This document shows, in pieces, positions 37,877 to 57,173 of a stretch of 64,000 nt of DNA. The translations under genes were made by a program, and so were the position numbers. Position 1 is the first letter of the stretch. Each line of letters opens with the position of its first letter. Origin of the DNA: Pseudomonadota bacterium (GTDB taxonomy: Bacteria; Pseudomonadota; Gammaproteobacteria; Burkholderiales; Methylophilaceae); contig JAKQTN010000069.1 in NCBI GenBank assembly GCA_029563075.1, positions 7,618-71,617 on the forward strand, in the 5' to 3' direction. The notes beneath the pieces are model-generated. The model was not told where the DNA came from and did not search any database. It saw only the letters and a program-made list of their open reading frames with translations.

Positions 37877-37892
37877 AATTTAATTACCCTTA

Positions 37893-38011
37893 TCAATTAG
37901 TTTTTAAGCGAATCGCTTTGTTACGCGGTGTTCAAAAACCTCATGTACTTTGTGTACATTCCGGTTTTTGCGCTCCGTGCGCCTCGCACTTCATCTTAAA
38001 AGCTGAATTGC
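37893..38011. mobile_element. 119-bp MITE-like element with imperfect terminal inverted repeats and TA flanks
   Basis: Left CAATT-AGTTTTTAAG (37894-37908) versus the reverse complement of right CTTAAAAGCTGAATTG (37995-38010). TA on both sides (37891-92, 38012-13). Internal hairpin CAAAAACC..ATGTAC-tttgt-GTACAT..GGTTTTTG. Confidence 0.55.
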
Positions 38012-38042
38012 TACAGGCAATTAAACGCAACAAAATTTAAGT

Positions 38043-39197: not shown

Positions 39198-39198
39198 G

Positions 39199-40083
39199 CT
39201 ATTTTCCTTCCTTGAATAGCTGATCCAGCTTCTGCTCATAGGCGTGATAACCTAAGTGTTCGTAAAGCTCAGCGCGTGTCTGCATCAAATCCAGCACGTT
39301 TTTTTGAGTGCCTTCTTTTTTAACGGATTGATATACCTTAAGCGCGGCTTGGTTCATCGCCCTGAACGCCGAGAGAGGGTAGAGCACCATGCTGACATTC
39401 GCTGTTGCCAGTTCATTTACAGTGAATAACGGTGTGCTGCCAAACTCGGTGATATTGGCGAGCACCGGTACTTTTACAGCTTCGGCAAATTGTTTGTACA
39501 TGCCGAGATCGGTAATTGCTTCGGGGAACACCATGTCTGCGCCTGCCTCGACACAGGCACAGGCGCGGTCAATAGCGGACTGCAGTCCCTCCACAGCCAG
39601 TGCATCGGTGCGCGCCATAATCACAAAATCCAGGTCGGTTTTCGCATCTACAGCGGCTTTGATGCGGTCGACCATTTCTACCTGGCTGACAATCGCTTTG
39701 TTCGGGCGATGCCCGCAGCGTTTAGCCTGTACCTGGTCTTCAATATGAACGGCAGCGGCACCTGCTTTAATCACGCTTTTAATAGCGCGCGCAATGTTAA
39801 AGGCACCGCCAAAACCGGTGTCGATATCCACCAGCAAAGGCGTGTCAACCGCATCAGTGATTCGGCGCACATCAATCAATACGTCTTCCAGTGTGGAAAT
39901 GCCTAAATCGGGCAGGCCCAGTGAGCCCGCGGCCACACCACCGCCGGAAAGGTAAATGGCTTGAAAGCCGCTCTGGGTGGCAAGCATGGCGTGGTAGGCG
40001 TTAATCGCGCCGATGATTTGCAGCGGCTTCTCGGCTTTTAATGCGGCGCGAAAACGTGCGCCGGCAGACTGTGATGTTGTCAT
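39199..40083 (-). CDS. prpB: 2-methylisocitrate lyase
   Basis: [31 protein letters not shown]. Start corrected to ATG 40083. Confidence 0.96.
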
Positions 40084-41081
40084 GAAAAAAACCTTTGCTG
40101 AGCTTCGCTGGAAATTGCCACGCCAGTGAGTTTGGCTTTTTGCAGAATCTCCCAAAAATAGCGATAGGTGGCTCTGTCGTGCAACTCGCCTGCATATTGA
40201 ATTGGCCCCCAATCGGCCTGTTGCGCAGCAAGCAGGATATTTGCGGCATCCGCCACTTCGTCAAAATTGGGTTTCATGGCGTCGACAATCGCCTGAATCT
40301 GAGTAGGATAGATGCTCCACATGCGCATAAACCCAAATTCTTTACGGGCGCGGCTTGCATCGCTGAATGTGGTTTCCACGCTTTTTAAATCCAGTGTCAC
40401 GTTATGCGCAGGCACAACACCATTGGCCAAAGCGGCCGCCACTACTTCAGCTTTGGCGCGCGCTAATAATCTGTGCTCAAACTGCCCTGGGCTGCGCATG
40501 GCCGAAGCCGGAATCGCGCCGTGATGCGCGCTGACAAAATCCATCAAGCCAAAATCTAGTACTTGCACCCACGGCAACGTGGCGATTTCATGCGCTTGTC
40601 TGAGCGCGCCATGCGTTTCAATCAAAATATGCACAGGGATTTCACGTGGTTTTCCATTTTGTGAAACTCCGAAAAAAGTTGTCATTTTCTGGATATAAGC
40701 GGTCATTTCTCTCGCTTGGGCTAGCGTCGTGCATTTAGGAATCGTGATGTAGCTTAGCACCTGCCCAGCGCCGCCTACCAGGATGTTGACATCCTGCTTC
40801 CAGGCGGGGTGTGTATAGTCATGAATGCGTACACCTGCCATTTTGTGTTTGTTGGCGTCGCTGTTTAATACGCGTACAATCATTTCCGCGTGCTCACGTT
40901 CTTGACCGCTTGCTGCGCCATCCTCGCAGTCGCAGGTAATATCAAAAACCGCGCCGATACTGTCCTGCAGGGCAAGTGCTTTTAAGATGAGCTTTTCGCT
41001 GCCGGCGAAATGTTCGCATGCCGGAATCAGCGGAAAAGGTTTTTCGCCGCCAAAAAGTGCGTCTTTTGGATGGACTGCCAT
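40080..41081 (-). CDS. CitE-family (HpcH/HpaI aldolase/citrate lyase) protein 1, betaproteobacterial type
   Basis: MHPKDALF-type N-terminus, [31 protein letters not shown]. Confidence 0.85.
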
Positions 41082-42152: not shown

Positions 42153-43034
42153 CTATATAAGCTCTTCTTCTAATTCTGCGATCATGTCATGCAGTTTTAA
42201 CAAGCGCTGCGCGGCCTTTACATGGTGATGCTCGACCAGTCTGTCGTTCACCACCACGGTGCCGCGACCAGATTCATTGGCTTCTTTAAGCGCCTGAATA
42301 ATTGCGCGCGCATCTGCAACCTCGCTCGCTTTTGGCGTGTAGGCGTCGTTACTATAGGCAATTTGGCCAGGATGCACTAAGGTTTTGCCATCAAAGCCCA
42401 TATCTCGCCCCAAGCGGCAGGCGTATTCAAACGAATGCACATTCTTAAAGTCACTGGTGATACCATCTACCACGCAACGCCCATAAGCTCGCGCAGCCAA
42501 TATCACCAATGACAATGCAGTTAATATCGCGCTTTGCTCGTGTGTCACTCTCGCATGCAACTGTGAGGTTAAATCAGATGTCGCTATCATCATGCAAACA
42601 ATTCGGTCGGATGCTGCTGCGATTTCTTTGGCATTGAGCACCGCAATCGGGCTTTCTATCATCACCATAATCGGCATATGACTTCCGCCTGCATTATCCA
42701 GCAGTTTGAGCGCGGTATGCACATGCTCGGCCGATTCTATATTAGGAAAAAGTATCGCATGCGCACCAATATTGGCGACTGCTCTGATGTCGTCATGCCC
42801 CCAGATGGAATCGAGATTATTCACGCGCACGATCACCTCGCGTGAACCATAGCCACCTTGCTTTACTGCGGCGACAATGTTGTTGCGAGATTCAATTTTA
42901 GCGTCCACCAGAATCGGGTCACCCAGGTCGAGAATCACTGCGTCCGCAGGCAAGGTACGCGCGCGGTCCAGATAGCGCTGGTTGCAACCGGGTACATAAA
43001 GTACAGAGCGACGTGGTCGAAAACAAAGTTCCAT
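42153..43034 (-). CDS. CitE-family protein 2, malyl-CoA lyase/thioesterase (Mcl2)-like, with divergent motifs
   Basis: RPRRSVLYVPG, VRVN, MIES, GRDMGFDGKTLVHPGQI. Start corrected to ATG 43034. Confidence 0.8.
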   Translation of the reverse strand: MELCFRPRRSVLYVPGCNQRYLDRARTLPADAVILDLGDPILVDAKIESRNNIVAAVKQGGYGSREVIVRVNNLDSIWGHDDIRAVANIGAHAILFPNIESAEHVHTALKLLDNAGGSHMPIMVMIESPIAVLNAKEIAAASDRIVCMMIATSDLTSQLHARVTHEQSAILTALSLVILAARAYGRCVVDGITSDFKNVHSFEYACRLGRDMGFDGKTLVHPGQIAYSNDAYTPKASEVADARAIIQALKEANESGRGTVVVNDRLVEHHHVKAAQRLLKLHDMIAELEEELI

Positions 43035-43097
43035 AAAAATAAGTTTTAGTTGTGTATTGCAGCGATTATATAGATGGCTTTCTTGCGCTGTCAACAA

Positions 43098-43122
43098 ATA
43101 TCTTATGTCTTATATAAGATAT
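43098..43122. promoter_or_regulatory. GntR/HutC (SdhR-type) operator palindrome
   Basis: ATATCTTAT-gtcttat-ATAAGATAT. The core TCTTATGTCTTATATAAGA matches, from memory, the motif predicted for betaproteobacterial SdhR. Confidence 0.75.
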
Positions 43123-43188
43123 AAAATACTAGACTATTTTTATTCAGTATGTTTTAATTTGTTTAACTTAGAATAGCTGCAGTAAACC

Positions 43189-43926
43189 ATGAAAGATAAA
43201 ACTTACACTTCGCCAAGTTACAAGCCGCTTTACGATCAGATCAAGGTGTTGTTAACTCAAAGCTTGATTGGCGGTGAATGGCGTCCTGGTGAAATGATCC
43301 CAAGCGAAATCGAGCTGGCAGCACGCTATAAAGTAAGCCAAGGTACAGTGCGTAAGGCTATTGATAGCCTCGCAGGTGAGAATATTCTGATTCGCCGCCA
43401 GGGCAAAGGGACTTTTGTCGCCACACACAACGAGGAAGGTATCAAGCTGCGTTTTTTACGTCTGACCGCAGTGAATGGCCAAAAGGAGTTGCTGCAGAAT
43501 GAGTTGATATCGTGCGCTAAAACCAAAGCGGATAATCGCATTGCCAAGATTCTGGAGTTGAAGGCAGGTGCTGCCATGATTGAAGTAAAACGGCTACTTA
43601 CGTTTTCTGGCAGGCCATTGATTTATGACCATATAATCGTCCCAGCCGCACAGTTTAAAGGCCTGAATGCGAATAGGGTGGAAGAGAATAACGGTTCGAT
43701 GTACAGCATGTATGAGACGGAATACGGCATCCGCATGATTCGTGCAGAGGAGCGGCTTACCGCTGTGGCGGCAACGGATGAGGTTGCAAAAGCATTGCAT
43801 TTAAGCGAAGGCGCGCCACTGTTGAGTATTGAGCGCGTTTCGTATACTTATGGCGATAAGCCTATGGAATGGCGGCTAGGCTTATGTTTAACAGACGATC
43901 ATCACTACATGAGCGAATTAGAGTAA
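43189..43926 (+). CDS. GntR/HutC-family regulator (SdhR-type)
   Basis: PLYDQIK...PSEIELAARYKVSQGTVRKAI...QGKGTFV plus UTRA domain; upstream of sdhCDAB. Confidence 0.92.
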   Translation: MKDKTYTSPSYKPLYDQIKVLLTQSLIGGEWRPGEMIPSEIELAARYKVSQGTVRKAIDSLAGENILIRRQGKGTFVATHNEEGIKLRFLRLTAVNGQKELLQNELISCAKTKADNRIAKILELKAGAAMIEVKRLLTFSGRPLIYDHIIVPAAQFKGLNANRVEENNGSMYSMYETEYGIRMIRAEERLTAVAATDEVAKALHLSEGAPLLSIERVSYTYGDKPMEWRLGLCLTDDHHYMSELE

Positions 43927-43942
43927 AAATTGGAAGCAATAA

Positions 43943-45139
43943 ATGGATGACCTAAAAAAACGCGCACTCGATTATCATCAATTCCCCGTTCCTGGCAAGT
44001 TGAGCGTGGAGTCGTCCAAGCCTTGTGCGACGCAGGATGATTTGTCGCTGGCCTACACGCCCGGCGTAGCCGAGCCAGTACGTGAAATCAATGCTGACCC
44101 GGCCAATGCTTATAAGTATACTAACAAAGGCAATCTGGTCGCTGTGATTACCGATGGTACAGCGGTACTGGGCTTAGGTAATATGGGTGCGCTGGCTAGC
44201 AAACCGGTGATGGAGGGCAAGGCTGTCCTGTTCAAGCGCTTTGCGGGCATTGATGTGTTTGATATTGAAATCAATGCTAAAACGCCTGATGAATTTATTC
44301 AAACGGTCGTAAATATTGCGCCTACATTTGGCGGCATCAATCTGGAAGATATCGCGGCGCCGCATTGCTTTTACATTGAGAACGAGCTTAAAAAGCGCCT
44401 CGACATTCCTGTGTTCCATGATGATCAGCATGGCACGGCAGTCATAGTGGCGGCAGCCCTGTTGAACGCGCTTGAGCTGCAAGGCAAAACTTTGCCAACC
44501 GCAAAAATTGTGTTTCTGGGCGCGGGCGCGGCGGGTTGTTCATGTGCTAAGTTACTCAAGCTCATGGGCGCAACCAATGTGACGATGGTCGATAAAAAAG
44601 GGGTGCTTGATGCGGAAAGAGCCGATCTGCATGAGAATAATCGCGATCTTGCTGTGCAGCCAACCAGCTCAAAAACGCTGGCTGATGTCATGCCAAATTG
44701 CGATGTATTTATAGGTGTTTCGGCTAAAAATGCCCTGGATGCAGCACTGATTAGGAGTATGGCCAAAAATCCGATTATCTTTGCCTTAGCTAACCCTGAT
44801 CCTGAAGTATTGCCGAGCGTGGCACATGCCATACGCGATGATATTTTGATGGCAACCGGCCGCAGCGACTTTCCAAACCAGGTGAATAATGCGCTGTGTT
44901 TCCCTTATCTGTTCCGTGGCGCGCTGGATGCCAAAGCCACAAAGATCACGGAGAAAATGAAAATTGCCGCTGCACATGCATTGAGCGAGTTGGCGCGGGA
45001 GCCAGTGCCAGCCGATGTCTTGAAGGCATACAACCTGCAGGCGCTTGAATTCGGAAAAAATTACATTATTCCAAAGCCCTTCGACAAGCGTTTATTGGCG
45101 CGGGTTTCAGGGGCGGTCGCAATCGCCGCAATAGAATAA
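43943..45139 (+). CDS. NAD(P)-dependent malic enzyme, short form without PTA domain
   Basis: [46 protein letters not shown]; 398 aa. Confidence 0.93.
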
Positions 45140-45153
45140 GAAAAAATAGAATC

Positions 45154-45540
45154 ATGCAGAAAAAAACAGCCAGAAGCCGTCCCAAGAACCTGAATCTGTT
45201 CACTATCCGCTTGCCGATTAACGCAGTGGTTTCCATTCTACATCGTGTGTCAGGTATGGTTTTGTTTTTAATGTTGCCGCTCATTTTGCTGGCGTTTCAG
45301 CGCTCTGTGAAATCGCAAGATAGTTATACAGCACTAGCTGAACTGTTGAATGTCTGGTTTATAAAGCTCATGCTTATTGGGTTGGCATGGTCATTCTCCC
45401 ATCATTTTTTTGCAGGCATCAGGCATTTAATGCAAGACATACACTGGATGACCAGCTTGCAAAAAGCGCGATTTTCTGGCCGTGTAGTGCTGTGGTTAGT
45501 AGGATTTTCTGTAGCTATTTTTGCTTTTGTGGTTTGGTAG
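45154..45540 (+). CDS. sdhC: Succinate dehydrogenase cytochrome b556 subunit
   Basis: RPKNLNL, SILHRVSG, HHFFAGIRHL. Confidence 0.93.
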   Translation: MQKKTARSRPKNLNLFTIRLPINAVVSILHRVSGMVLFLMLPLILLAFQRSVKSQDSYTALAELLNVWFIKLMLIGLAWSFSHHFFAGIRHLMQDIHWMTSLQKARFSGRVVLWLVGFSVAIFAFVVW

Positions 45541-45546
45541 TTTTGT

Positions 45547-45894
45547 ATGTTAATTCAACTGCTTACTGATAAATACCCTGGCATGCGTCTGTGGCTGTCT
45601 CAGCGCTTAACTGCAGTCATCATGGCTAGTTACGTGTTGTTTTTCGTAATTATGCTTATTGTTCAACGGCCTGTAGGGTATGAAGCTTGGTATACATTCG
45701 TGTCGCCAGCCTGGTTTAGATTTGCTACGTTATTATTTTTTGTATGCCTCTTTTCGCATGCATGGCTGGGAGTGCGCGATGTGCTGCGGGATTATATTTT
45801 TAACCTAAACTTGAGGAATTATCTGCAAATGCTGGTAGATATTTTGCTGGTGATTTATCTAGCTTGGGTGTCGGTTATTTTATGGAACATTTAA
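45547..45894 (+). CDS. sdhD: Succinate dehydrogenase membrane anchor
   Basis: WLSQRLTAV, HAWLGVRDVLRDYI. Confidence 0.92.
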   Translation: MLIQLLTDKYPGMRLWLSQRLTAVIMASYVLFFVIMLIVQRPVGYEAWYTFVSPAWFRFATLLFFVCLFSHAWLGVRDVLRDYIFNLNLRNYLQMLVDILLVIYLAWVSVILWNI

Positions 45895-45897
45895 CAA

Positions 45898-47661
45898 ATG
45901 GTTTTAGACCAGAACAAGATTCAACACCATCAATTTGATGCAGTCATTGTCGGCGGCGGTGGCGCGGGTTTGCGTGCGTCGCTGCAACTGGCACAGGCTG
46001 GCGTTAAAGTGGCGGTATTGTCTAAAGTATTTCCTACCCGCTCACACACAGTGGCGGCTCAGGGTGGGATTGCTGCGGCGCTAGGCAATGTGGCCGAGGA
46101 TAAATGGCTGTGGCACATGTATGACACCATTAAAGGCTCGGATTTTCTGGGTGACCAGGATGCGATTGAGTTTATGTGCAAAAACGCCGCAAAAGCCATT
46201 ATCGAGTTGGAACACTTTGGCATGCCGTTTGACCGGCTGGAAAGCGGTAAAATTTTTCAGCGCCCGTTTGGCGGCATGACGCAGAATTTTGGCGAAACGC
46301 CTATTTCGCGCACTTGTGCGGTGGCCGATCGTACTGGCCACGCCATGCTGCACACGCTGTATCAGCGCAACATACAAGCTAATACGCAGTTTTTTGTCGA
46401 GTGGTTCGCGCTCGATTTGATTCGAGATGCAGACGGTGATGTACTCGGTGTCATCGCGCTGGAAATTGAAACGGGTGAGATTCACATCATGCAAGCCAAA
46501 ACCACACTGCTGGCTACAGGTGGCGCAGGGCGCATCTTTCAGGCCAGTACCAATGCGTTTATCAACACGGGTGATGGCTTGGGCATGGCGGCGCGGGCCG
46601 GCTTGCCCTTGCAGGACATGGAATTCTGGCAATTCCATCCGACAGGGGTGCTGCATGCAGGAGTGCTGATTACCGAAGGCGTGCGAGGCGAGGGCGGTTA
46701 TCTGGTGAATAGTGAGGGCGAGCGCTTTATGGAGCGTTACGCACCGCATGCCAAAGATCTGGCCAGCCGCGACGTGATTGCACGCGCTTCGGCGACCGAG
46801 ATTAAGGAAGGTCGTGGCGTCGGAAAGAACAAGGATGCGGTGCATCTGAAACTGGATCATCTAGGCGAAGAGCTAATAAACAAGCGCCTACCAGGCATAC
46901 GCGAAATTGCCAAAACCTTTGCCAATGTCGACCCGATTCACGACCCGATACCCGTGGTGCCGACTGCACACTATATGATGGGTGGTATTCCGACCAATCT
47001 GGATGGGCAAGTGGTTGTTAATAATGAGCGACCTGTGAAAGGCCTCTATGCAGTGGGTGAATGTGCTTGTGTTTCAGTGCATGGCGCCAACCGTTTAGGT
47101 TCAAATTCGCTGCTGGACTTGGTTGTGTTCGGTAAAGCGGCGGGCGATAAAATGGCGCTTGAAATCGCACAAAATAAAGCACACAAGCCGTTGCCGATTA
47201 ATGTGGCAGAAGCTACATTGGTGCGCATTGCACGATTGGAAAACGCCAGCGGAGAGAGTGTCACTGAGGTCGGTGCGGCTATGCGCAAAACCATGCAGAG
47301 GCATTGCGGTGTGTTCCGCTTTCCCGATTTGTTGGCAAAAGGGGTGGGTGAAATTGACGCTGTTGCAAAGCGCGTGCAGCACATTGTTATCAAAGATAAA
47401 AGCCAGGTATTTAACACCGCGCGCGTGGAAGCGCTGGAGCTGGACAACCTGATGGAAGTGGCGATGGCCACCATGCACGCTGCCAATGCGCGCACGGAGA
47501 GTCGTGGCGCGCATGCGCGTGAGGATTTTGGTGGGCGTGATGATATCAATTGGCTTAAACATTCACTTTTTTACAAACAAAACAATACATTAGCTTATAA
47601 GCCAGTGCGCTTAAAACCACTGACTGTGGAATCTTTTGAACCGAAAAAGAGGGTTTACTAG
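45898..47661 (+). CDS. sdhA: Succinate dehydrogenase flavoprotein
   Basis: [43 protein letters not shown]. Confidence 0.97.
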
Positions 47662-47662
47662 A

Positions 47663-48400
47663 ATGAAATTTAGCGTTTACAGATACAACCCGGACGCAGA
47701 CAAAAAGCCCTATATGCAGGATTACGACATCGAACTGCATGAGGAAGACCACATGCTCTTGGATGCACTGATCCGTATCAAAGAACACGATGAAACGCTG
47801 AGTTTACGTAAATCCTGCCGAGAAGGCGTGTGCGGCAGCGATGCGATGAATATCAACGGTAAAAATGGCCTGGCTTGCATTACCAAACTTGTGGATTTAG
47901 AAGAGCCAGTGGTGCTGCGCCCTATGCCGGGCTTGCCGGTGATTCGCGATTTGGTGGTCGATATGACACAGTTTTTCGAGCATTACAACTCGGTCAAGCC
48001 CTACCTTGTAAATAATGACCCGCTGCCGGAAACCGAACGCCTGCAAAGCCCGGAAGACCGTGCCAAACTGGACGGTCTGTACGAGTGTATTTTATGCGGT
48101 GCCTGTACCACGTCATGTCCAAGTTTCTGGTGGAATCCGGATAAGTTTGTCGGCCCGGCCGGCCTGATGCAGGCCTATCGGTTTATTGCAGACTCACGTG
48201 ACCAGGCTGAAGCCGAGCGACTGGAGAATCTCGAAGACCCTTATCGTTTATACCGCTGTCATAACATCATGAATTGTGTGGAAGTGTGCCCGAAAAAGCT
48301 CAACCCGAATGCGGCGATTGCCAAAATTAAAGACCTAAAAATCGAGCGGGCGCGTGAGCGCAAAATAACCAAAAAAGAAATACCAATCAAGGTGTTATAA
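47663..48400 (+). CDS. sdhB: Succinate dehydrogenase iron-sulfur subunit
   Basis: SCREGVCGSD, CILCGACTTSCP, CHNIMNCVEVCP. Start ATG 47663. Confidence 0.97.
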   Translation: MKFSVYRYNPDADKKPYMQDYDIELHEEDHMLLDALIRIKEHDETLSLRKSCREGVCGSDAMNINGKNGLACITKLVDLEEPVVLRPMPGLPVIRDLVVDMTQFFEHYNSVKPYLVNNDPLPETERLQSPEDRAKLDGLYECILCGACTTSCPSFWWNPDKFVGPAGLMQAYRFIADSRDQAEAERLENLEDPYRLYRCHNIMNCVEVCPKKLNPNAAIAKIKDLKIERARERKITKKEIPIKVL

Positions 48401-48688
48401 ATGCTGGATAGTGAACACATGAATGAAGCAGAACAACGGCGCTTAGCCTGGCGTTGTAGGCGTGGCCTGCTGGAGCTTGATATCGTGTTGCAGCGCTTTG
48501 TAAATGGGCAATTTAGCGAGCTGAGTTTGCGCGAGCAGCAGGCATTCGATGCGTTGCTCGACTTGCCGGACAATGATTTTTGGGCTTTGATCAGTGCAAC
48601 GGAAACGGCACATGAGAACGGCAGCATGCATAGCGTCATTACAAAATTAAGAGTGGCTGGAATGAACCATAATCAGGAGGCGAAATAA
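48401..48688 (+). CDS. sdhE: Succinate dehydrogenase assembly factor
   Basis: WRCRRGLLELD, LLDLPDNDF. Confidence 0.9.
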   Translation: MLDSEHMNEAEQRRLAWRCRRGLLELDIVLQRFVNGQFSELSLREQQAFDALLDLPDNDFWALISATETAHENGSMHSVITKLRVAGMNHNQEAK

Positions 48689-48689
48689 G

Positions 48690-49820
48690 GTGATGATGCA
48701 TATCGGTGGACAGGCGCTATCTATAGATGCTCGCGCGTTAGGTGACTACTGGCCGGGCATCCAGCTCTATTATCCGCCCGTAAAATACGCGCCCAGTCTC
48801 GGCATATATGAGGACATGGCGCAAGCCGCTGCGCGCATGAAAAAGCATGCACATTTTACCAATGCGCATACGTTGATTTTTGACCTGGAGGATGGTTGCC
48901 GGCAAAAAGAGATGAGTCGCGACTTGCTGCGACAAGAGTTGCCCGAGCTGCGACGAGTAAATCAAAACGTCACGATTGCGATTCGAGCCAACCCTTTCCG
49001 TACCGATGAATACGAGCTGGATATGCGGCTGGTGTGCGAGATGGCGGAATATATTGATGTTGTGATGCTGGCGAAAGCGGGCGAGGCCTATGGCGCGGCA
49101 GAGGTGCGGGATTTATCCAGTTTTCTGTTAAGTATTAATCCGAAAATCACTATTCAGCCGATTATTGAGCATCCAAAATCGCTCAAGATTGCGCCCGAGC
49201 TCATGCAGTACAACACAGTTAAACACGTGGTGTTCGGCATTCACGATTTTTCCAAAGCAATGGGCATTCATATTACGCCAGAAAACTGGATTGAAGAGCT
49301 GCAGTTTTACATGAACCAGCTTATGTTCGAGGCACGTATCGCGGGCAAGGGCGTGATAGGCGGCGTGGAGACTTTGCTCGGGGCTAATATCATGCCAGAG
49401 AAATATTTAGAGCCGCACGATGTGCGCCGTTGGCTGGATTTACATGGCGATAACGAATCGCGCATTGTATACAAACACGCCTGTCAGGAAGCCGCTATGG
49501 GGCTTACCGGCAAACAGGTCATTCATCCTGGGCATATTCATCTGTGTAAAACCGCTTATACACCATCACCCACCGATGTGGCGCAAAAAGTGGCAATTTT
49601 AAAAGCGGCGATTGAAGCCGATGCACTGCACGGCGGCGCGATTAAATTTGAAGGCGAGATGCTGGATCCGCCTATGTTCGGCAAGGCGCTGCAAACCCTG
49701 CTGCGCGCACATGCTTTACGTGCGCTTAAAACGGCAGATATGGAGTTTGCAGTGCATGTTCTGGAACTGCTACCAGCTCAGGTAGTGCGTCAAAATTGGC
49801 CATACGGAGTGCTACTTTAA
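48690..49820 (+). CDS. CitE-family protein 3 (atypical)
   Basis: IFDLEDG, IRAN, IIEHP, FGIHDF, GKQVIHP, EGEMLDPP. Confidence 0.8.
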   Translation: MMMHIGGQALSIDARALGDYWPGIQLYYPPVKYAPSLGIYEDMAQAAARMKKHAHFTNAHTLIFDLEDGCRQKEMSRDLLRQELPELRRVNQNVTIAIRANPFRTDEYELDMRLVCEMAEYIDVVMLAKAGEAYGAAEVRDLSSFLLSINPKITIQPIIEHPKSLKIAPELMQYNTVKHVVFGIHDFSKAMGIHITPENWIEELQFYMNQLMFEARIAGKGVIGGVETLLGANIMPEKYLEPHDVRRWLDLHGDNESRIVYKHACQEAAMGLTGKQVIHPGHIHLCKTAYTPSPTDVAQKVAILKAAIEADALHGGAIKFEGEMLDPPMFGKALQTLLRAHALRALKTADMEFAVHVLELLPAQVVRQNWPYGVLL

Positions 49821-51457
49821 TGTTTACAGACTTTCCCAAATGGGAATGGAATATTCCTGAATATTTCAATATCGGGGCAGCCTGCACCGATAGGCATCTC
49901 GGCACGCCACAAGCCGACAATATCGCCATGATTGTCGAAGATGATACGCTTGGAACTGCGCAAATCACCTTTGCCGAGCTGGCGCGTAAAACCGACCAGT
50001 TTGCACAGGTGCTGCGAAATTTAAACGTTAAGGTGGGTGACCGGGTGCTGATTCGCCTGCCGAACAGCCTGGATTACCCGATCGCATTTCTAGGGGCGAT
50101 GAAGATGGGTGCGATTTCTGTGCCGACATCAACGCTGCTCACGGCTGAAGAAGTGGCTTATCTGGCTAAGGACTCAGGCGCAACGGTGCTGGTGACGGAT
50201 GCGACAGCCTGGAAAAATATGGAAGAGCAATTGGTGCAAGGGTTAAGGGATACGCCTAATCTATCGCACATCTTGCTCTCGCAAGCCACCCATACTGAGC
50301 CGCATGGCTGCCTGAATGTACTGAGTTTGGAAAACAGTCTGAGCGCCACCCATAGGTGTGATAAGGTGCATAAAAGTAAGGCTGACGATCCCGCTTATCT
50401 GGTGTATACCTCTGGCACAACAGGCTACCCAAAAGGTGTTCTGCATGCGCACCGCGCCCTGCTTGGCCGTCAGCCTGCCGCGCAATACTGGTTTAATTAC
50501 AGTGACAGTGCACAAGATCGAATTATGCACTCGGGTAAATTTAACTGGACCTATGTGCTGGGCTCTGGCCTGATGGATCCGCTGTATTTGGGCAAAACCG
50601 TCATTGTGCACGAAGGGAAAAATGATGCGCAGAAATGGCTGGATTTGATTCAAAAACATCAAGCCACCATTTTTATTGGTGTGCCGACGATTTACCGCCA
50701 GATCTTGCAAAAAACAACAGCCACAAAAGAAGAATTGCCCAGTCTGCGCCACTACATGAGCGCGGGTGAGCACCTGTCTGACGAAGTGTTAAGCCAATGG
50801 CGCGAACGGTTTGGTTTGGATATTTATGAAGCCGTGGGCATGAGCGAGTTCTCGTACTATTTAAGCCAGAGTCAATTCCGTGCTATACGTGCGGGATCTG
50901 CAGGATTCGCGCAACCTGGCCATGCTATTAAATTGCTTAATCCTGAAACGCTGGAAGAAGTCGCTATGGGCGAAGAAGGCATGATTTGCGTGCCATTAGA
51001 CGACCCCGGCTTGTTTTTACTTTATTGGAATCTGGACGAAGAAACCGCAAAATATAAGCATAATGGCCACTTTTTCACGGGAGATTTTGCCAAATATGAT
51101 GCGGATGGCTACATCTGGTTTTTAGGCCGCAAAGACGACATTATCAAAAGCTTCGGTTATCGAGTATCGCCCTATGAGATCGAGCGCGTGTACAAAAATC
51201 ATCCTGATGTCGCAGATTGCGCGGCAATTGGCGAAGAGTTGGAGAAAGACAAGGTGCTAGTGGTGTGCTACGTGATACTAAAACCGGATTCAAGCACCAC
51301 CCCGGATGACTTGGCCAGCTTTGGCAAACAACATTTGGCCGCTTACAAAGCGCCAAAAACTGTTTATCTTGCGCATGATTTCCCACGCACTAAGAATGGT
51401 AAAATCTTGCGTAAAGATATTACACCCAGCATTGCGATAGCCAAAAGTTCGAGATGA
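49820..51457 (+). CDS. AMP-forming acyl-CoA ligase (medium-chain/aryl-CoA ligase-like), substrate unknown
   Basis: YTSGTTGYPKG, SAGE, GMSE, TGD, GRKDD, PRTKNGKILR. TAATG overlap with the upstream CitE gene. Confidence 0.88.
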   Translation: MFTDFPKWEWNIPEYFNIGAACTDRHLGTPQADNIAMIVEDDTLGTAQITFAELARKTDQFAQVLRNLNVKVGDRVLIRLPNSLDYPIAFLGAMKMGAISVPTSTLLTAEEVAYLAKDSGATVLVTDATAWKNMEEQLVQGLRDTPNLSHILLSQATHTEPHGCLNVLSLENSLSATHRCDKVHKSKADDPAYLVYTSGTTGYPKGVLHAHRALLGRQPAAQYWFNYSDSAQDRIMHSGKFNWTYVLGSGLMDPLYLGKTVIVHEGKNDAQKWLDLIQKHQATIFIGVPTIYRQILQKTTATKEELPSLRHYMSAGEHLSDEVLSQWRERFGLDIYEAVGMSEFSYYLSQSQFRAIRAGSAGFAQPGHAIKLLNPETLEEVAMGEEGMICVPLDDPGLFLLYWNLDEETAKYKHNGHFFTGDFAKYDADGYIWFLGRKDDIIKSFGYRVSPYEIERVYKNHPDVADCAAIGEELEKDKVLVVCYVILKPDSSTTPDDLASFGKQHLAAYKAPKTVYLAHDFPRTKNGKILRKDITPSIAIAKSSR

Positions 51458-52992
51458 GCATAATCAAACAAGAAGACTTTATTCAAAGCATCGCCGATGC
51501 TTTGCAGTACATTTCTTACTATCACCCGGCGGATTATATCCAAGCCTTGGGTGAGGCATATAAAGTTGAGCAATCGCCTGCGGCGAAAGATGCTATCGCG
51601 CAGATTCTTACCAATTCGCGCATGTGTGCAGAAGGCAAGCGCCCGATCTGTCAGGATACGGGCATTGTGGTGGCGTTTGTTAAAGTGGGCATGAGTGTGT
51701 GTTTTGAGGGCGAGCTATCATTGGAAGAAATGGTGAATGAGGGCGTGCGCCGCGCATATTTGCTGCCGGAGAATAAGCTGCGTGCCTCGATTGTGAACGA
51801 CCCTACTGGTGCCCGCAAAAACACCAAAGACAATACACCAGCTGTAACGCATGTAGAACTGGTGCAAGGCAACATGGTGGAAGTGAGTATTGCAGCAAAA
51901 GGCGGCGGTAGCGAGAATAAAGCCAAGTTCGCGATGCTTAACCCGAATGATTCTATCGTGGATTGGATACTGGAAACCGTGCCGACCATGGGCGCGGGCT
52001 GGTGTCCGCCTGGCATGCTGGGTATTGGTATTGGTGGTGATGCTGAAAAAGCCATGATTCTGGCCAAAGAATCGCTGATGCAGCCGATTAACATGCATGA
52101 ACTTATACAAAAGGGCGCACATAACAGACTGGAAGAGTTGCGGCTGGAGATTTACGAAAAAGTGAATAATCTCGGCATTGGTGCACAAGGTTTAGGTGGC
52201 CTGACAACAGTATTGGATGTGAAGATTTTGGATTATCCAACGCATGCGGCCAGTCTGCCGGTGGCGATTATTCCTAATTGTGCGGCGACGCGGCATATTC
52301 ACTTTAACTTGGGCGGCACGGGCGTAGCAGAGCTCACGCCGCCTGACATTAGCATCTATCCTGATATACACTGGGCACCGAGCCCGCAAGCCAGGCGTGT
52401 GAATCTAGACATGCTCACAAAAGCCGATATAGCCCATTGGCAGGCAGGCGAAACATTATTATTAAGCGGGAAATTGCTGACAGGGCGCGATGCTGCGCAT
52501 AAAAGAATATCCGCCATGCTGGCTAAAGGCGAGCAACTGCCCGTGGATTTTACCAACCGCTTTATTTATTACGTTGGCCCGGTGGATGCTGTCCGGGATG
52601 AAATAGTTGGCCCGGCAGGTCCAACCACGGCCACACGGATGGATGATTATACCGAGATGATGCTAGGGCAGCTCAACTTGTTGGGCAGTATTGGCAAGGC
52701 AGAGCGCGGTGACGAGGCTTTAGCAGTAATCGCTAAATACAAATCAGTGTACTTAATGGCCATTGGCGGCGCGGCGTATCTGGTGAGTAAAGCTATTAAA
52801 AAATCGCGTGTCGTTGCGTTTGCCGATTTGGGCATGGAAGCGATCTATGAGTTTGAAGTGGTGGATATGCCGGTGACGGTGGCTGTGAGCGCGACGGGTG
52901 AATCGGTGCACATAACCGGGCCTGCGGAATGGAAAGAAAGCATTGCGAAGCATAAAACAATAAAAATTCATTCTGTGCCGCAGTTTACATAG
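51454..52992 (+). CDS. fumA: Class I (Fe-S) fumarate hydratase
   Basis: PICQDTG, KGGGSEN, GWCPPG, TGRDAAH, GPTTATRMD. Confidence 0.93.
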   Translation: MSIIKQEDFIQSIADALQYISYYHPADYIQALGEAYKVEQSPAAKDAIAQILTNSRMCAEGKRPICQDTGIVVAFVKVGMSVCFEGELSLEEMVNEGVRRAYLLPENKLRASIVNDPTGARKNTKDNTPAVTHVELVQGNMVEVSIAAKGGGSENKAKFAMLNPNDSIVDWILETVPTMGAGWCPPGMLGIGIGGDAEKAMILAKESLMQPINMHELIQKGAHNRLEELRLEIYEKVNNLGIGAQGLGGLTTVLDVKILDYPTHAASLPVAIIPNCAATRHIHFNLGGTGVAELTPPDISIYPDIHWAPSPQARRVNLDMLTKADIAHWQAGETLLLSGKLLTGRDAAHKRISAMLAKGEQLPVDFTNRFIYYVGPVDAVRDEIVGPAGPTTATRMDDYTEMMLGQLNLLGSIGKAERGDEALAVIAKYKSVYLMAIGGAAYLVSKAIKKSRVVAFADLGMEAIYEFEVVDMPVTVAVSATGESVHITGPAEWKESIAKHKTIKIHSVPQFT

Positions 52993-53043
52993 TAGACTGC
53001 ACTTTTTGTACCAGTATCAGTCATAATGACTGGAGAATACACA

Positions 53044-53376
53044 ATGAATATACATCGATTTCTAAGGCTGACAGCACAGGTTGTTGCGATGATTTTTTTG
53101 CTATTGGCAGCGAATGCGGCCAGTGCGGATGATATATTGGGTTATCTCACCGATAAGGATGGCCGATATACAGGCCCGACGGTGGAAGATAATATCGCCA
53201 GGATGGATGCCGATAAAAATGGCTTCGCAGACGTGTTTGAAGTGCGTGCATTTTTGGAGCTGGAACACGGCAAAGGCTACGAAAAAGCACTGATGGATAA
53301 GTGGGAAGCCTCTGCCAGAGGTACAAGTTGTACCACGCCATTTTCCAAAGAGTTGTATGTAGATAAAAGCAACTAA
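53044..53376 (+). CDS. Small secreted EF-hand protein
   Basis: Signal peptide ending ANA-ASA; 12-residue loop DADKNGFADVFE; GGAG RBS before ATG 53044. Confidence 0.7.
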   Translation: MNIHRFLRLTAQVVAMIFLLLAANAASADDILGYLTDKDGRYTGPTVEDNIARMDADKNGFADVFEVRAFLELEHGKGYEKALMDKWEASARGTSCTTPFSKELYVDKSN

Positions 53377-53501
53377 TTTATTTCTCCGGTAATAGCGTTG
53401 ACTAAGTCATACCGGCGCTGGCAGGAATGATGGAATTTTCAAGCTGGTTGTATAATCACATTTTTAATTATTTTATCCAAATCTCAAAGATGCAAAACAC
53501 C

Positions 53502-56084
53502 ATGTTAAAAGCCTACCAAACGCATGTGCAAGAACGCGCAGCGCAACAGCTTCCACCGTTACCAATGACTGCTGAGCAGGTTGCACAATTGGTTGAGTTG
53601 CTTAAAAACCCGCCGGCAGGCGAAGAGGCTTTACTGACAGATCTGCTTGAAAACCGCACCCCCGCTGGTGTAGACCAAGCGGCTTATGTAAAAGCGGCAT
53701 TTTTGGCCGATATTGCCAAAGGCACTACCAAATCACCTCTGATTTCTCCGGAAAAGGCTGTGCAATTACTTGGCACCATGCTGGGTGGCTACAACGTGCA
53801 AGCGCTGGTTGAGTTATTAAGCACTCCAATGGCAGAGCATGCGGTTAAGGCGTTAAGCAGCACCATCTTGATGTTTGATGCGTTTCACGATGTGGATGTA
53901 TTGATGAAGGCGGGGAACGCCCATGCTAAAAAACTCATGCAATCCTGGGCAAATGCCGAGTGGTTTACCAGCAAACCCGCCATGCCGGATGAAATCAAAA
54001 TGGTGGTGTTTAAGGTCGATGGCGAAACCAACACGGATGACCTTAGTCCGGCGCAGGAGGCCTGGAGTCGCCCGGATATTCCGCTGCATGCCAAAGCCAT
54101 GCTGGTGAATAAAATGCCTGATGGCCTGAAAACCATCGAAAGCCTGAAGCAAAAAGGCCTGCCACTGGCTTACGTGGGCGACATCGTGGGCACGGGCTCA
54201 TCGCGCAAATCGGCGATTAACTCGGTGCAATGGTACATGGGCAACGATATTCCGAATATTCCCAATAAACGCACAGGCGGTGTGATTCTGGGCGGTAAAA
54301 TCGCGCCGATTTTCTTTAATACAGCAGAAGATTCAGGCGCCTTGCCGATTCAATGTGATGTTTCGAAAATGCATACATGTGATGTAATTACGATTAAACC
54401 GTTCGAGGGCAAAGTGTTGAATGACTCGGGAGAAGTCGTTTCCAGCTTTGAGCTTAGCCCAGTCACCATGCCTGATGAAGTGCGTGCGGGCGGCCGTATT
54501 CCTTTGATTATCGGTCGCGGCCTGACTTCTAACGCACGCAAGGCTTTGGGCTTGGCTGAAACAGATGTGTTTATTAAAGCAACACCTGCGGCAGTTTCGA
54601 AAAGGGGTTACACTCTCGCGCAAAAAATGGTGGGCAGAGCATGTGGGTTGCCAGAAGGTGTTGGGGTGCGCCCTGGTACTTATTGCGAGCCAAAAGCAAC
54701 AACTGTGGGCTCGCAGGACACCACTGGCGGCATGACGCGCGATGAGCTAAAAGAATTGGCATGTCTAGGGTTTAGCAGCGATCTGGTGATGCAGAGCTTC
54801 TGCCACACCGCCGCTTACCCGAAACCAGTCGATATCAAATTGCAGCACGAGTTGCCAGAGTTTATGTCTAGCCGCGGCGGGGTTTCTTTGCGTCCAGGCG
54901 ATGGCGTGATCCACTCCTGGCTCAACCGCATGATTCTGCCGGATACCGTTGGTACAGGCGGCGATTCACACACACGCTTCCCGATTGGTATTTCATTCCC
55001 CGCTGGTTCGGGGTTGGTGGCGTTTGCCGCGGCTACCGGCGCGATGCCGCTGGATATGCCGGAATCTGTCCTGGTGCGCTTCAAGGGAACCATGCAGCCG
55101 GGTATTACCCTGCGAGATCTGGTGAATGCGATTCCTTATGCGGCGATTCAGGAAGGTACGCTTACTGTGGGTAAGCAAGGTAAAAAGAACGTATTTAACG
55201 GCAGGATTTTAGAAATAGAAGGCCTGCCTGATTTGAAAGTCGAACAGGCCTTTGAGTTCGCAGATGCTTCTGCCGAGCGCTCTGCCAATGGTTGCACGGT
55301 GTTGCTGAACAAAGAGCCGGTGATTGAGTTTCTGAACTCCAATATCGTGCTGATGCAGAACATGATAGACAATGGCTATCAGGATGCACGCACTTTGCAG
55401 CGTCGCATCGCCAATATGCAGGCATGGCTGGAAAAATCAGAACTGCTGCAACCAGATGCCGATGCTGAATACGCGCATGTGATCGAGATTGATTTGAACG
55501 AAATCAAAGAGCCATTGGTGGCGTGCCCGAACGACCCGGATGACATCAAGCCGTTATCTGCTGTCGTGGGTGATAAGGTGGATGAGGTGTTTATAGGCAG
55601 TTGCATGACCAATATCGGCCATTACCGCGCCGCAGCCAAAGTGCTGGAAGGCACGGGCAACATCCCGACAAGACTGTGGATCGCACCGCCAACCCGTATG
55701 GATGAAGCGCAATTGCGTGACGAAGGCGTGTATTCTGTGTTTGGCGTAGCTGGTGCGCGTACCGAAGTCCCAGGTTGCAGCCTTTGCATGGGCAACCAGG
55801 CGCGTGTGGCAGATAAAGCGACTGTATTCAGTACCAGTACACGCAACTTTGATAACCGCATGGGCAAGGATGCGCGTGTTTATCTAGGTTCAGCAGAATT
55901 GGCTGCTGTCTGCGCCAAACTGGGCCGCATGCCAACGCATGCAGAATATATGGAAACCGTGGGCAATAAACTCGCTAACAGTGCGGAGATTTACAAATAT
56001 CTGAATTTTGACCAGATGACCGAATACAAGGGCGCCCTGGATAAGGTAAAGAAAGTCATTCCAATCGCAGAGCTTTCAGAATAA
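53502..56084 (+). CDS. acnB: Aconitate hydratase B / 2-methylisocitrate dehydratase
   Basis: [41 protein letters not shown]. Start ATG 53502. Confidence 0.97.
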
Positions 56085-56178
56085 AGTGCTAACTTGGTCT
56101 CAGAACCTCTAGCTTAAAAAGGATGATACTGAATTACACTCTTGAGGTTTTTATTGCCATACCTTTAGTTTGTGCGAT

Positions 56179-56604
56179 ATGAACATAGAACAACAGCCTG
56201 ATAACGCCCATATATTCTCCCAAGAAGAGATTGTTTCGCCAGCGAAGCGAGGTGCGTGGAAATGGATGTTGCCATTAAGCATTACGCTGGCGCTGGTCAT
56301 GTTTGCAGCTTGGCATTTTGGCTGGCATGCCAAAGCCGTTACTGCTGGTGTGTTGTTATTAGCAGGGCTTTCCCATTTATTCGCATGGATACTCGGCATC
56401 ATTGCATTAGTGCCGATTATTGGCCCAATATTGGTGAAAGTCCTTAGCTTGTCTATCATCTGGCTGCTGAATGCCATCGGATATCTGGTTTCTTTCGTTG
56501 CTATCAAACGTGGCTATTCTAAAGATGTACTTACCTACCGCGCTGTAACCATCGCGCTTATCTCGGGCATTATTATTGGCTATGTAATTGGCAGCCTGGT
56601 TTAA
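56179..56604 (+). CDS. Hypothetical membrane protein
   Basis: Several hydrophobic helices in an open frame of plausible length. Confidence 0.6.
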   Translation: MNIEQQPDNAHIFSQEEIVSPAKRGAWKWMLPLSITLALVMFAAWHFGWHAKAVTAGVLLLAGLSHLFAWILGIIALVPIIGPILVKVLSLSIIWLLNAIGYLVSFVAIKRGYSKDVLTYRAVTIALISGIIIGYVIGSLV

Positions 56605-56609
56605 ACTAC

Positions 56610-57173
56610 TTAATGCGGAACTTCCGCGCGGGCCATTAGCTTGTCAATGTAGGCAATCGCCATGGCCGAGAATACAAATGTCATGTGAATGACGGTTTGC
56701 CACAATAGTACCTTATCGGTCAGGTTTTCTGCATTGATAAAGGTTTTAAGCAAATGAATGGATGAAATACCGATGATGGCAGTGGCCAGCTTCACTTTAA
56801 GCAGATTGGCATTCACATGGGAAAGCCAATCAGGCTCGTCAGGGTGACCTTCCAGATTCAGGCGTGAAACAAAGGTTTCGTAACCACCCACAATCACCAT
56901 AATCAGCAGGTTTGAAATCATCACCACGTCAATCAAACCCAATACAATCAGCATGATGTCCGCTTCACCCAGATGGGGGATCTTATGTACCAGGTGGAAT
57001 AACTCTACCGCAAAGAAATACACATAGACTGCCTGTGCGATGATGAGACCTAAATATAGCGGCAGTTGCAGCCAGCGGCTGCCGAACAATATATTGGTCA
57101 TGATGTTGCTTTGCTTATATTCGCTACCTGAGATTTTTGTGTTTTCTTGCATGGGGCTACCTGAATAATTCAT
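56610..57173 (-). CDS. UPF0114/YqhA-family membrane protein
   Basis: SRWLQLPLYLGL, LIDVVMISNLLIMV, SSIHLLKTF. Confidence 0.88.
   Translation of the reverse strand: MNYSGSPMQENTKISGSEYKQSNIMTNILFGSRWLQLPLYLGLIIAQAVYVYFFAVELFHLVHKIPHLGEADIMLIVLGLIDVVMISNLLIMVIVGGYETFVSRLNLEGHPDEPDWLSHVNANLLKVKLATAIIGISSIHLLKTFINAENLTDKVLLWQTVIHMTFVFSAMAIAYIDKLMARAEVPH

Follow-up and report, generated by a model that had tools for sequence, protein, structure and literature searches.

The window analyzed here is a 64,000-nucleotide stretch of contig JAKQTN010000069.1 from a metagenome-assembled genome of Methylotenera (2.11 Mb, 99.6% complete). It contains three consecutive genes that encode a divergent CitE/HpcH-family coenzyme A (CoA)-ester lyase (CitE3), an acyl-CoA ligase of the type that forms adenosine monophosphate (AMP), and a class I fumarase. 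A divergent operon encodes two further CitE-family proteins (CitE1 and CitE2), a putative mesaconyl-C1-CoA hydratase (Mch), and enzymes of the methylcitrate cycle. A preliminary description had interpreted the first three genes as a module of citramalate synthase, mesaconase, and mesaconate-CoA ligase. In the comparisons reported below, the link to mesaconyl-CoA gained support, whereas a different set of genes emerged as the conserved unit.

The three open reading frames (ORFs) and the TAATG and ATGA overlaps by which they had been described as coupled were confirmed (Table 1). Among 52 Methylophilaceae loci, TAATG or TGATG occurs at the CitE3/ligase junction in approximately 18 and ATGA occurs at the ligase/fumarase junction in approximately 15; these counts are approximate because start codons were extrapolated from tblastn alignments. 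The overlaps are a lineage-specific trait, and gene order is kept in 51 of the 52 loci. Tight packing is not peculiar to the trio. All spacers in the string from the malic enzyme gene (ME) through sdhCDAB and sdhE to CitE3, the ligase gene, and the fumarase gene are 14 nucleotides or shorter, and sdhE ends only 1 nucleotide upstream of CitE3. The best explanation is that a long operon, gntR/ME-sdhCDAB-sdhE-CitE3-ligase-fumarase-orfX-acnB, has the three genes in its distal part. A scan of positions 43000–56700 for promoters and terminators returned counts not above shuffled expectation. A 9-bp hairpin with a T-rich run lies over the fumarase stop codon (positions 52980–53000) and may act as a partial terminator or attenuator before orfX-acnB, terminator-like sites in general being not enriched over shuffles.

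Table 1. Features of the window, with the three focal genes and their junctions listed first and neighboring genes thereafter.
Feature	Positions	Strand	Remarks
CitE3, divergent CitE/HpcH-family CoA-ester lyase, 376 aa	48690–49820	+	GTG start; alternative ATG at 48693, 48696
AMP-forming acyl-CoA ligase, 545 aa from ATG	49820–51457	+	alternative TTG start at 49796
Class I (Fe-S) fumarase, fused alpha/beta type, 512 aa	51454–52992	+	Pfam domains
TAATG stop/start overlap, CitE3/ligase	49818–49822	+	TAA 49818–49820, ATG 49820–49822
ATGA start/stop overlap, ligase/fumarase	51454–51457	+	ATG 51454–51456, TGA 51455–51457
Mch, predicted mesaconyl-C1-CoA hydratase/beta-methylmalyl-CoA dehydratase, double hot-dog, 356 aa	41082–42152	-	Pfam MC_hydratase
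CitE1, Mcl-like CoA-ester lyase	42153–43097	-	best PDB matches malyl-CoA/beta-methylmalyl-CoA lyases 5UGR, 4L9Y
CitE2, CitE-family protein, 3QQW/3R4I structural-genomics type	40080–41081	-	PDB 3QQW, E 6e-152
prpD, prpC, prpB (methylcitrate cycle)	36416–40212	-	Pfam MmgE_PrpD, Citrate_synt, PEP_mutase/ICL
gntR regulator, PTA-less malic enzyme, sdhCDAB, sdhE	43189–48688	+	upstream part of tightly packed string
116-aa ORF (53026–53376) and acnB	53026–56084	+	downstream of fumarase

The distribution of these genes was examined in 400 genomes drawn evenly from the class (threshold 1e-20), among which related genomes are not independent. Orthologs of CitE3 (67–81% identity, E < 1e-167) are present in eight genomes from six families, and no matches fall between these and the threshold. 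In all eight, the genes for Mch, the ligase, and two further CitE proteins lie side by side. The conserved unit is CitE3-ligase-CitE1-Mch plus CitE2, not the CitE3/ligase/fumarase trio; it is present in several gamma/betaproteobacterial families as well as Campylobacterota, and CitE2 is conserved in every module found. Of the 12 genomes in the sample of 400 that have an Mch ortholog (at least 52% identity), eight are the CitE3/ligase genomes. The other four belong to two families. In one of these, Mch lies beside two family III CoA transferases and two HpcH lyases, an arrangement resembling the 3-hydroxypropionate bi-cycle; in the other, its neighbors are a malate-synthase/HpcH-like protein and an Mcd-like acyl-CoA dehydrogenase of 542 aa, resembling the ethylmalonyl-CoA pathway. 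Because these genomes have CoA transferases or an Mcd-like dehydrogenase at this place, the ligase/CitE3 pair fills the slot of the enzymes that deliver or remove mesaconyl-CoA. A phylum-level search for CitE3 gave no further matches in 400 genomes, which shows its rarity and adds no lineages. The best 80 related loci are all from Methylophilaceae, the homologs with 85–100% identity to CitE3 being from Methylotenera and Methylophilus; other taxa were reached through genome and protein searches.

Two arrangements of the module emerged from synteny mapping. That of Methylophaga-like genomes has prpDCB-CitE2-MaoC-CitE1 next to gntR-ME-CitE3-ligase, followed by ppsR-ppsA, and contains neither sdh nor fumarase genes. 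At this locus (L019:12824–16092), ppsR and the phosphoenolpyruvate (PEP) synthase gene follow the ligase gene in place of the fumarase gene and acnB, a placement that suggests that the pathway products drain to PEP. Four other families, including that of Inmirania, have a compact module in which CitE2 is divergent from CitE3-ligase-CitE1-MaoC. When clustered at 50%, the ligases of this family fall into just two groups, one of stand-alone enzymes and one of ligase-CitE fusions of 840 aa; the search for representatives was dominated by giant nonribosomal peptide synthetase proteins and left seven usable entries. The fusion is the form found in Campylobacterota (Sulfurospirillum, Aliarcobacter, Arcobacter, and Halarcobacter), where its context is CitE3-like, ligase-CitE1, Mch, and CitE2. 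The fused lyase domain shares 36–38% identity with CitE1, the CitE1 of the window being 36% identical to the C-terminal domain of the fusion protein P0243. Two additional features were observed near these modules. A gene of about 280 codons with a DUF5718 domain (PF18985) and no NCBIfam match follows the module in Aliarcobacter butzleri (L129:12114–12950) and Halarcobacter anaerophilus (L131:12018–12860), and could be a further pathway component. In a family with high GC content, the compact module has a LeuA/CimA-like synthase gene a few genes upstream (L021:2893–4509, - strand) and an acetate kinase gene downstream (L021:14960–18376, + strand); the long ORF before ackA is possibly pta.

The gene annotated as "maoC" (Table 1) encodes an Mch ortholog, as judged from its sequence. 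Its product has full-length matches in PDB to 4E3E (E 3e-128) and to 8HGN, "Beta-methylmalyl-CoA dehydratase" (E 1.7e-112, 379 bits; residues 6–352 against 2–348), with approximately 52–58% identity over the full length (about 52% to 8HGN), which places it within the Mch family. These matches also bear on the hypothesis that the cluster degrades itaconate or another C5-dicarboxylate, such that the ligase would form itaconyl-CoA, the MaoC-type hydratase would hydrate it, and a CitE protein would cleave (S)-citramalyl-CoA to acetyl-CoA and pyruvate. The known itaconate pathway uses these three types of enzyme except that a CoA transferase does the work of the ligase (PMC12290011), and weak NCBIfam matches link the N-terminal half of the MaoC protein to RipB/Ich (118 bits) and CitE1 to RipC/Ccl (125 bits). 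However, both scores are far below the cut-offs (340 and 375 bits, respectively), whereas the match of the MaoC protein to Mch is full-length. Moreover, itaconate degradation would leave the three CitE paralogs and the link to prpBCD unexplained, and family scans recognized no transporter among the genes of the cluster. This hypothesis is considered very improbable.

For the metabolic background, the Methylotenera genome was searched for enzymes that could supply or consume the same intermediates. No match was found in this genome for CoA transferases (families I, III, and acetyl-CoA-hydrolase type), acyl-CoA dehydrogenase, methylmalonyl-CoA-type (B12) mutase, methylaspartate ammonia-lyase, isocitrate lyase, malate synthase, Ldh/Mdh-type malate dehydrogenase, class II fumarase, or canonical PrpE. 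The genome has Mqo (on another contig), SucC, a canonical Acs, and two unrelated AMP-binding genes, and its only CitE genes are the three of this locus. The fourth AMP-binding gene of the genome (L007:1456–2937) encodes 493 aa and has no NCBIfam match at E <= 1e-60. Because the respective enzymes have no matches, mesaconyl-CoA is not expected to arise from CoA transfer or from methylsuccinyl-CoA, and propionyl-CoA is not expected to arise from beta-oxidation or branched-chain catabolism. An origin of mesaconate from methylaspartate was rejected, as was an origin of mesaconyl-CoA from the ethylmalonyl-CoA pathway, given the lack of matches to the ammonia-lyase and to the dehydrogenase and mutase, respectively. 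The gene at positions 43943–45139, termed "mdh" in the literature, is a homolog of the PTA-less NADP-malic enzyme (398 aa), so that the conversion of malate to oxaloacetate must rely on Mqo. Together with prpBCD, three CitE genes, and Mch, this inventory is an unusually clean background for a pathway assignment.

CitE3 belongs to the CitE-like/HpcH-HpaI superfamily, with a score of 40.3 bits against PF03328 (HpcH_HpaI; cut-off 25; residues 46–226) and an additional C-C_Bond_Lyase fragment. It appears to form its own clade within the CitE family. Scores against characterized subfamilies are low: 53.9 bits for the citrate lyase beta subunit (TIGR01588; cut-off 443.4; C-terminal 75 residues only), 23.6 for malyl-CoA/beta-methylmalyl-CoA lyase (NF041626; cut-off 500), and 44.7 for the citramalyl-CoA lyase RipC/Ccl of the itaconate pathway (NF038242; cut-off 375). 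The possibility of a true citrate lyase was rejected for lack of an NCBIfam equivalog match. The unusual N-terminus and C-terminal extension pointed out in the preliminary description are real features of the family. Across 20 homologs down to 65% identity, the N-terminal WPGIQLYYPPVKY, the EMLDPPMFGK loop, and the C-terminal tail ending in NWPYG show little or no variation and are therefore family signatures rather than noise. The residues FDLED65-68, R99, E160, D186, and D326 align with motifs of 1SGJ and CLYBL and are invariant in the same 20 homologs; we take their metal-binding and catalytic roles (D326 as the lid Asp) to be those of Mcl and CLYBL structures. The same description had tied the MLDxP motif to thioesterase or malate-synthase-type activity. 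The motif is present, but ordinary lyases of the CitE type (1SGJ and CLYBL) have its aspartate as well, and therefore it is no pointer to such chemistry in CitE3. We know of no sequence determinant for malyl-CoA thioesterase or CLYBL-type synthase activity.

The sequence match of CitE3 to solved CitE enzymes lies mainly in the last 80 or so residues. An AlphaFold2 model built on the 20-sequence alignment had a mean pLDDT (predicted local distance difference test) of 64, with values below 50 for residues 184–290. Its top Foldseek matches, at about 20% identity, are CLYBL, (S)-citramalyl-CoA lyase, Mycobacterium tuberculosis CitE, and Mcl; these support a CitE fold in the model and give no call on specificity. 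In comparison with CLYBL, (S)-citramalyl-CoA lyases, and Mcl1 (5VXC, 8KHL, 6AQ4, and 4L9Y), CitE3 would have the same fold and has the DLED motif, R99, E160, D186, and the EMLD326PP loop. Unlike these enzymes, it carries an N-terminal extension of about 50 residues, a C-terminal tail of about 40 residues, and an insertion around residues 184–290 that AlphaFold2 left unmodeled. The extensions and the insertion are conserved within the CitE3 clade.

The ligase matches AMP-binding (PF00501, 257 bits) and AMP-binding_C (PF13193, 58.7 bits), and the conserved motifs YTSGTTGYPKG, GMSE, TGD, GRKDDIIK, and PRTKNGK place it among the ANL acyl-CoA ligases. It reaches no NCBIfam equivalog cut-off. Its score against AcsA is 237.8 bits (cut-off 724.95), compared with 1007 bits for the true Acs of the genome; PrpE models are absent from its 25 best NCBIfam matches, and among solved structures it is closest to benzoate-CoA ligases and to 3ETC from Methanosarcina. 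With AcsA so far below the cut-off and benzoate-CoA ligases as the nearest structures, the earlier statement that the enzyme is not of the PrpE or Acs type stands. It is regarded as a candidate C4/C5-dicarboxylate (mesaconate, citramalate, or malate) CoA ligase and partner of CitE3. Its tie to mesaconyl-CoA chemistry follows from the presence of Mch in the divergent operon, the co-occurrence in eight of eight genomes, and the lack of CoA-transferase matches in the genome. Alignment of the pocket to the benzoate-CoA ligase BadA (W/T/Y at positions 226–228 and S/Y/Y at positions 332–334) was also tried as a source for the substrate and proved non-discriminating, as the motifs recur in relatives without CitE3. 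In a literature phrase search for mesaconate-CoA ligase and mesaconyl-CoA synthetase, only an in silico proposal for A. butzleri was found (PMC2147049).

The ligase may alternatively be a PrpE substitute for exogenous propionate, with a plain role of the fumarase in the tricarboxylic acid (TCA) and methylcitrate cycles and with CitE3 as an accessory lyase, unrelated or minor. In PMC4109929, "cyl3, prpE, fum" are given as members of the methylcitric acid cycle cluster of Methylophilaceae. Such a role would also fit a genome with no match to canonical PrpE, a fumarase that is the sole one, and a W-containing pocket, which suggests a small acyl group. However, the ANL clade of the ligase is not that of Acs and PrpE. 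Moreover, the ligase stays with CitE3, CitE1, and Mch, with no adjacent prp genes, both in Campylobacterota (as a fusion with CitE1) and in another five families, and a search for PrpD in one complete module genome found no match. A propionate ligase would also leave Mch without a source or sink for mesaconyl-CoA. In addition, a canonical Acs is encoded elsewhere in the genome, and Acs enzymes are often active on propionate. Taken together, this explanation seems improbable.

The fumarase is a member of the class I fumarate hydratases, with 328.8 bits against PF05681 (Fumerase) and 264.3 bits against PF05683 (Fumerase_C). Residues C66, C184, and C276, which we take to be the Fe-S cluster ligands, are conserved with the A. 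butzleri enzyme. Its score of 174 bits against the model of Escherichia coli FumA/FumB-type enzymes (NF011919; 1105) excludes that type, whereas scores against models of the two-subunit type are closer (NF004885, 272.9 against 276; NF005310, 174.9 against 238), and the protein appears to be a fusion of the two-subunit type. It is the only fumarase gene matched in the genome and is for that reason the housekeeping fumarase. In the complete module genomes tested (four of four), a fumarase of the same subtype with 67–70% identity is encoded elsewhere in the genome. A fumarase gene directly adjacent to the module was found only in Methylophilaceae and A. butzleri; in Sulfurospirillum, a class I fumarase gene lies 4.6 kb downstream of the module. 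The enzyme directly after the A. butzleri module is 59% identical to that of the window and is an extra copy, given that FumC is also reported for this organism (PMC2147049). The trio as a functional unit was accordingly not upheld, the conserved unit being the one described above. The preliminary interpretation is supported in that a class I fumarase gene has joined the module independently in A. butzleri. Class I fumarases hydrate mesaconate and class II fumarase does not, with efficiencies relative to fumarate of 4% for FumA, 19% for FumB, and none for FumC; this promiscuity is shown only for E. coli FumA, FumB, and FumD and is reported for a Burkholderia xenovorans enzyme (PMC4682846). By analogy, it is possible that the fumarase of the window acts as a mesaconase.

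Among the other genes of this supercluster, prpDCB are on the same strand as CitE1-Mch-CitE2 and downstream of them. The 116-aa ORF after the fumarase gene has no family match; 51 of 52 long Methylophilaceae loci have both this ORF and acnB in place. A perfect sigma-70 consensus (12/12; TTGACA, 18 nucleotides, TATAAT) is present at positions 43065–43094 (- strand), inside the 5' end of the CitE1 ORF as read from its TTG start. It is directed toward CitE1-Mch-CitE2-prpBCD and lies in the divergent region shared with gntR.

The reading preferred here is that the supercluster encodes a CoA-transferase-independent pathway through mesaconyl-CoA and beta-methylmalyl-CoA that feeds the methylcitrate cycle. 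This is tentative and seems quite possible, if somewhat short of probable. The comparisons establish the gene identities, the conservation of the module, the pairing of CitE3 with the ligase, the identity of Mch, and the lack of matches to alternative enzymes, whereas we infer the substrates of CitE3, the ligase, CitE1, and CitE2, as well as the direction of flux. In the proposed scheme, CitE3 would condense acetyl-CoA and pyruvate and release (S)-citramalate, which the class I fumarase, beside its housekeeping role, would convert to mesaconate. The ligase would activate mesaconate to mesaconyl-C1-CoA, Mch would add water to give beta-methylmalyl-CoA, and CitE1 would cleave the latter to propionyl-CoA and glyoxylate. 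PrpC, PrpD, AcnB, and PrpB would then convert propionyl-CoA and oxaloacetate to succinate and pyruvate, with oxaloacetate regenerated through Sdh, fumarase, and Mqo. CitE2 (or CitE1) would combine glyoxylate with acetyl-CoA to form malate, and the malic enzyme, together with PEP synthase in Methylophaga, would drain malate to pyruvate and PEP. The net effect would be an equivalent of the glyoxylate cycle that is independent of isocitrate lyase. This scheme gives each gene of the supercluster a role. It also accounts for the presence of prpBCD in the same regulon in a genome where the usual internal sources of propionyl-CoA are missing without beta-oxidation. With respect to expression, the orthologs NB46_00665 and NB46_00666 of the OM43 clade are co-induced by natural dissolved organic matter (PMC5120137), and PMC3728764 describes high in situ expression of the whole methylcitric acid cycle cluster, with its substrate unknown.

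Several observations weigh against this pathway. The pocket motifs of the ligase (NWTY and GMSEFSYY) are common to relatives with 42–44% identity, two of the three such relatives with an examined neighborhood have no CitE3 partner, and the ligase sequence gives no identity of its acid, the roles within the module being predictions from protein sequence. The model of CitE3 is poor over residues 184–290. The position of the fumarase gene may be explained by a TCA/methylcitrate role alone, because it encodes the sole fumarase and follows sdh, and in five gammaproteobacterial families and Halarcobacter the fumarase gene is not near the module. The route would cost two ATP equivalents plus a thioester per turn. 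Furthermore, the metagenomic contig L126 carries adjacent genes for a ligase (44% identity) and a CitE3 (42% identity) that retains both terminal signature motifs, with no Mch within 6 kb. The simplest reading of L126 is that the ligase product is the CitE3 substrate, and the ligase-CitE1 fusion of Campylobacterota hints that the ligase product may pass directly to a lyase. CitE3 and the ligase are a co-evolving pair, and because this pair is also found without Mch, it is the tightest couple within the five-gene module that forms the conserved unit.

The pair without Mch and the ligase-lyase fusion favor an alternative in which CitE3 and the ligase activate and cleave directly, with the opposite direction of flux, as in the 3-hydroxypropionate bi-cycle. 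The ligase would activate (S)-citramalate and/or (S)-malate, and CitE3 would cleave the product to acetyl-CoA and pyruvate or glyoxylate. CitE1 would condense propionyl-CoA with glyoxylate, Mch would dehydrate the product, CitE2 might hydrolyze mesaconyl-CoA, and the fumarase would convert mesaconate to citramalate, with a net conversion of propionyl-CoA and glyoxylate to acetyl-CoA and pyruvate. A direction of this kind is discussed for A. butzleri by Miller et al. (PMC2147049). Besides the conservation of the pair with and without nearby Mch and the domain fusion, the top Foldseek ranks of citramalyl-CoA lyases (CLYBL, 8KHL, and M. tuberculosis CitE) are consistent with this alternative, but matches of about 20% identity do not discriminate specificity. 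The gene order sdh-CitE3-ligase-fumarase likewise fits a sequence from succinate through fumarate, malate, and malyl-CoA to acetyl-CoA and glyoxylate. However, the genome has no obvious source of propionyl-CoA or glyoxylate (no beta-oxidation and no isocitrate lyase), the module and the co-regulated prpBCD would compete for propionyl-CoA, and a mesaconyl-CoA thioesterase would be required, for which we know of no precedent among CitE proteins. The cleavage direction as a whole is considered rather unlikely. With regard to the preliminary interpretation as citramalate synthase, mesaconase, and mesaconate-CoA ligase, Mch, the co-occurrence in eight of eight genomes, and the lack of CoA-transferase matches support the link to mesaconyl-CoA, whereas direct activation and cleavage by a citramalate/malate ligase and a lyase fits the L126 pair equally well.

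The distribution of isocitrate lyase is a further point at which the preferred pathway finds little help. This enzyme is absent in all eight module genomes and present in 110 of the 400 genomes (27%), an anticorrelation that is not significant because the module genomes represent approximately six independent families. Unpublished genomes (G039, G141, G296, and G308) were used only in this base-rate count. Two module genomes, G080 (C2:471494–472231) and G118 (C2:177076–177780), have malate synthase and lack isocitrate lyase; their orphan malate synthases therefore need another source of glyoxylate. A more ambitious proposal is that the supercluster of about 19 genes constitutes a complete unrecognized cycle of acetyl-CoA assimilation. 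Such a cycle would join a citramalate/mesaconate arm to the methylcitrate cycle, rely on the first mesaconate-CoA ligase of the AMP-forming kind and on an (S)-citramalate synthase of the CitE type, and replace the glyoxylate shunt in isocitrate-lyase-negative methylotrophs (Methylophilaceae and Methylophaga), sulfur oxidizers, and relatives of Arcobacter. This proposal is doubtful, though not far-fetched.

Membership in the module could explain the long-puzzling methylcitric acid cycle cluster of these methylotrophs. If propionyl-CoA and glyoxylate are indeed generated internally from acetyl-CoA and pyruvate, the cluster would be a fifth type of substitute for the glyoxylate cycle and would account for how abundant methylotrophs of fresh and marine waters switch to mixotrophic C2 assimilation. 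Two undescribed activities would also be involved, namely AMP-forming ligation of mesaconate to CoA and (S)-citramalate synthesis by a CitE-type enzyme; synthetic C1/C2 pathways, which at present rely on CoA transferases, could make use of both. Even with another direction or substrate, this conserved set of enzymes is widespread and has clear candidate substrates, and the comparative evidence turns a 15-year-old open question into simple assays.

Neither the locus (cyl3, prpE, and fum in Methylophilaceae) nor the pathway idea (A. butzleri, 2007) is new. In the A. butzleri genome report, Miller et al. (2007; PMC2147049) proposed, as annotation only, a mesaconyl-CoA synthetase (ab1918), an enzyme interconverting mesaconate and citramalate (ab1921), and a CitE protein making citramalate. 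The genes ab1917–ab1921 represent the same families in the same order as the module (CitE3-like, ligase, CitE1, Mch, CitE2, and class I fumarase), and their products share 53–63% identity with those of the window (34% for CitE1). In A. butzleri, a single polypeptide carries the ligase and CitE1, the prp genes are at another site together with AcnD/PrpF, and the roles, proposed from sequence, were linked to the methylcitrate cycle. In the window, by contrast, the module is distributed between two divergent operons, and the genes for sdh, malic enzyme, acnB, and prpBCD lie among its members. The "methylcitric acid cycle" cluster mmol_0748–0766 of Methylophilaceae corresponds to the locus of the window, with identical order in 51 of 52 loci; in the two reports (PMC3728764 and PMC4109929), the cluster is described as a propionate-oxidizing cycle with unknown substrate, the ligase being named prpE and the malic enzyme mdh. 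Term searches of this literature, in the portions available, did not find the Mch identity of "maoC" or a CitE3-ligase-Mch module in non-methylotrophs. As far as found in the literature search, what is new is the conservation of the module in two phyla, the recognition of Mch, the pattern of replacement, and the inventory of the stripped-down genome.

Among established pathways, the methylaspartate cycle, the ethylmalonyl-CoA pathway, and the 3-hydroxypropionate bi-cycle likewise use Mch and CitE-family lyases around beta-methylmalyl-CoA, malyl-CoA, and citramalyl-CoA, with propionyl-CoA and glyoxylate as products or substrates, as proposed here. In those routes, whose lyases are Mcl1 and Mcl2, mesaconyl-CoA is formed by a family III CoA transferase (Mct) or methylsuccinyl-CoA dehydrogenase (Mcd), whereas the genome studied here has an AMP-forming ligase and the CitE3 clade instead, and propionyl-CoA would enter the methylcitrate cycle rather than methylmalonyl-CoA. 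The citramalate cycle of Ivanovsky et al. was superseded by the ethylmalonyl-CoA pathway. Its chemistry, as proposed for Rhodospirillum rubrum, is the same as in the present scheme, leading from acetyl-CoA and pyruvate through citramalate, mesaconate, mesaconyl-CoA, and beta-methylmalyl-CoA to propionyl-CoA and glyoxylate (Ivanovsky et al., 1997, as cited in PMC2147049). No genes were assigned in the R. rubrum proposal, whereas the module described here would provide a dedicated gene set.

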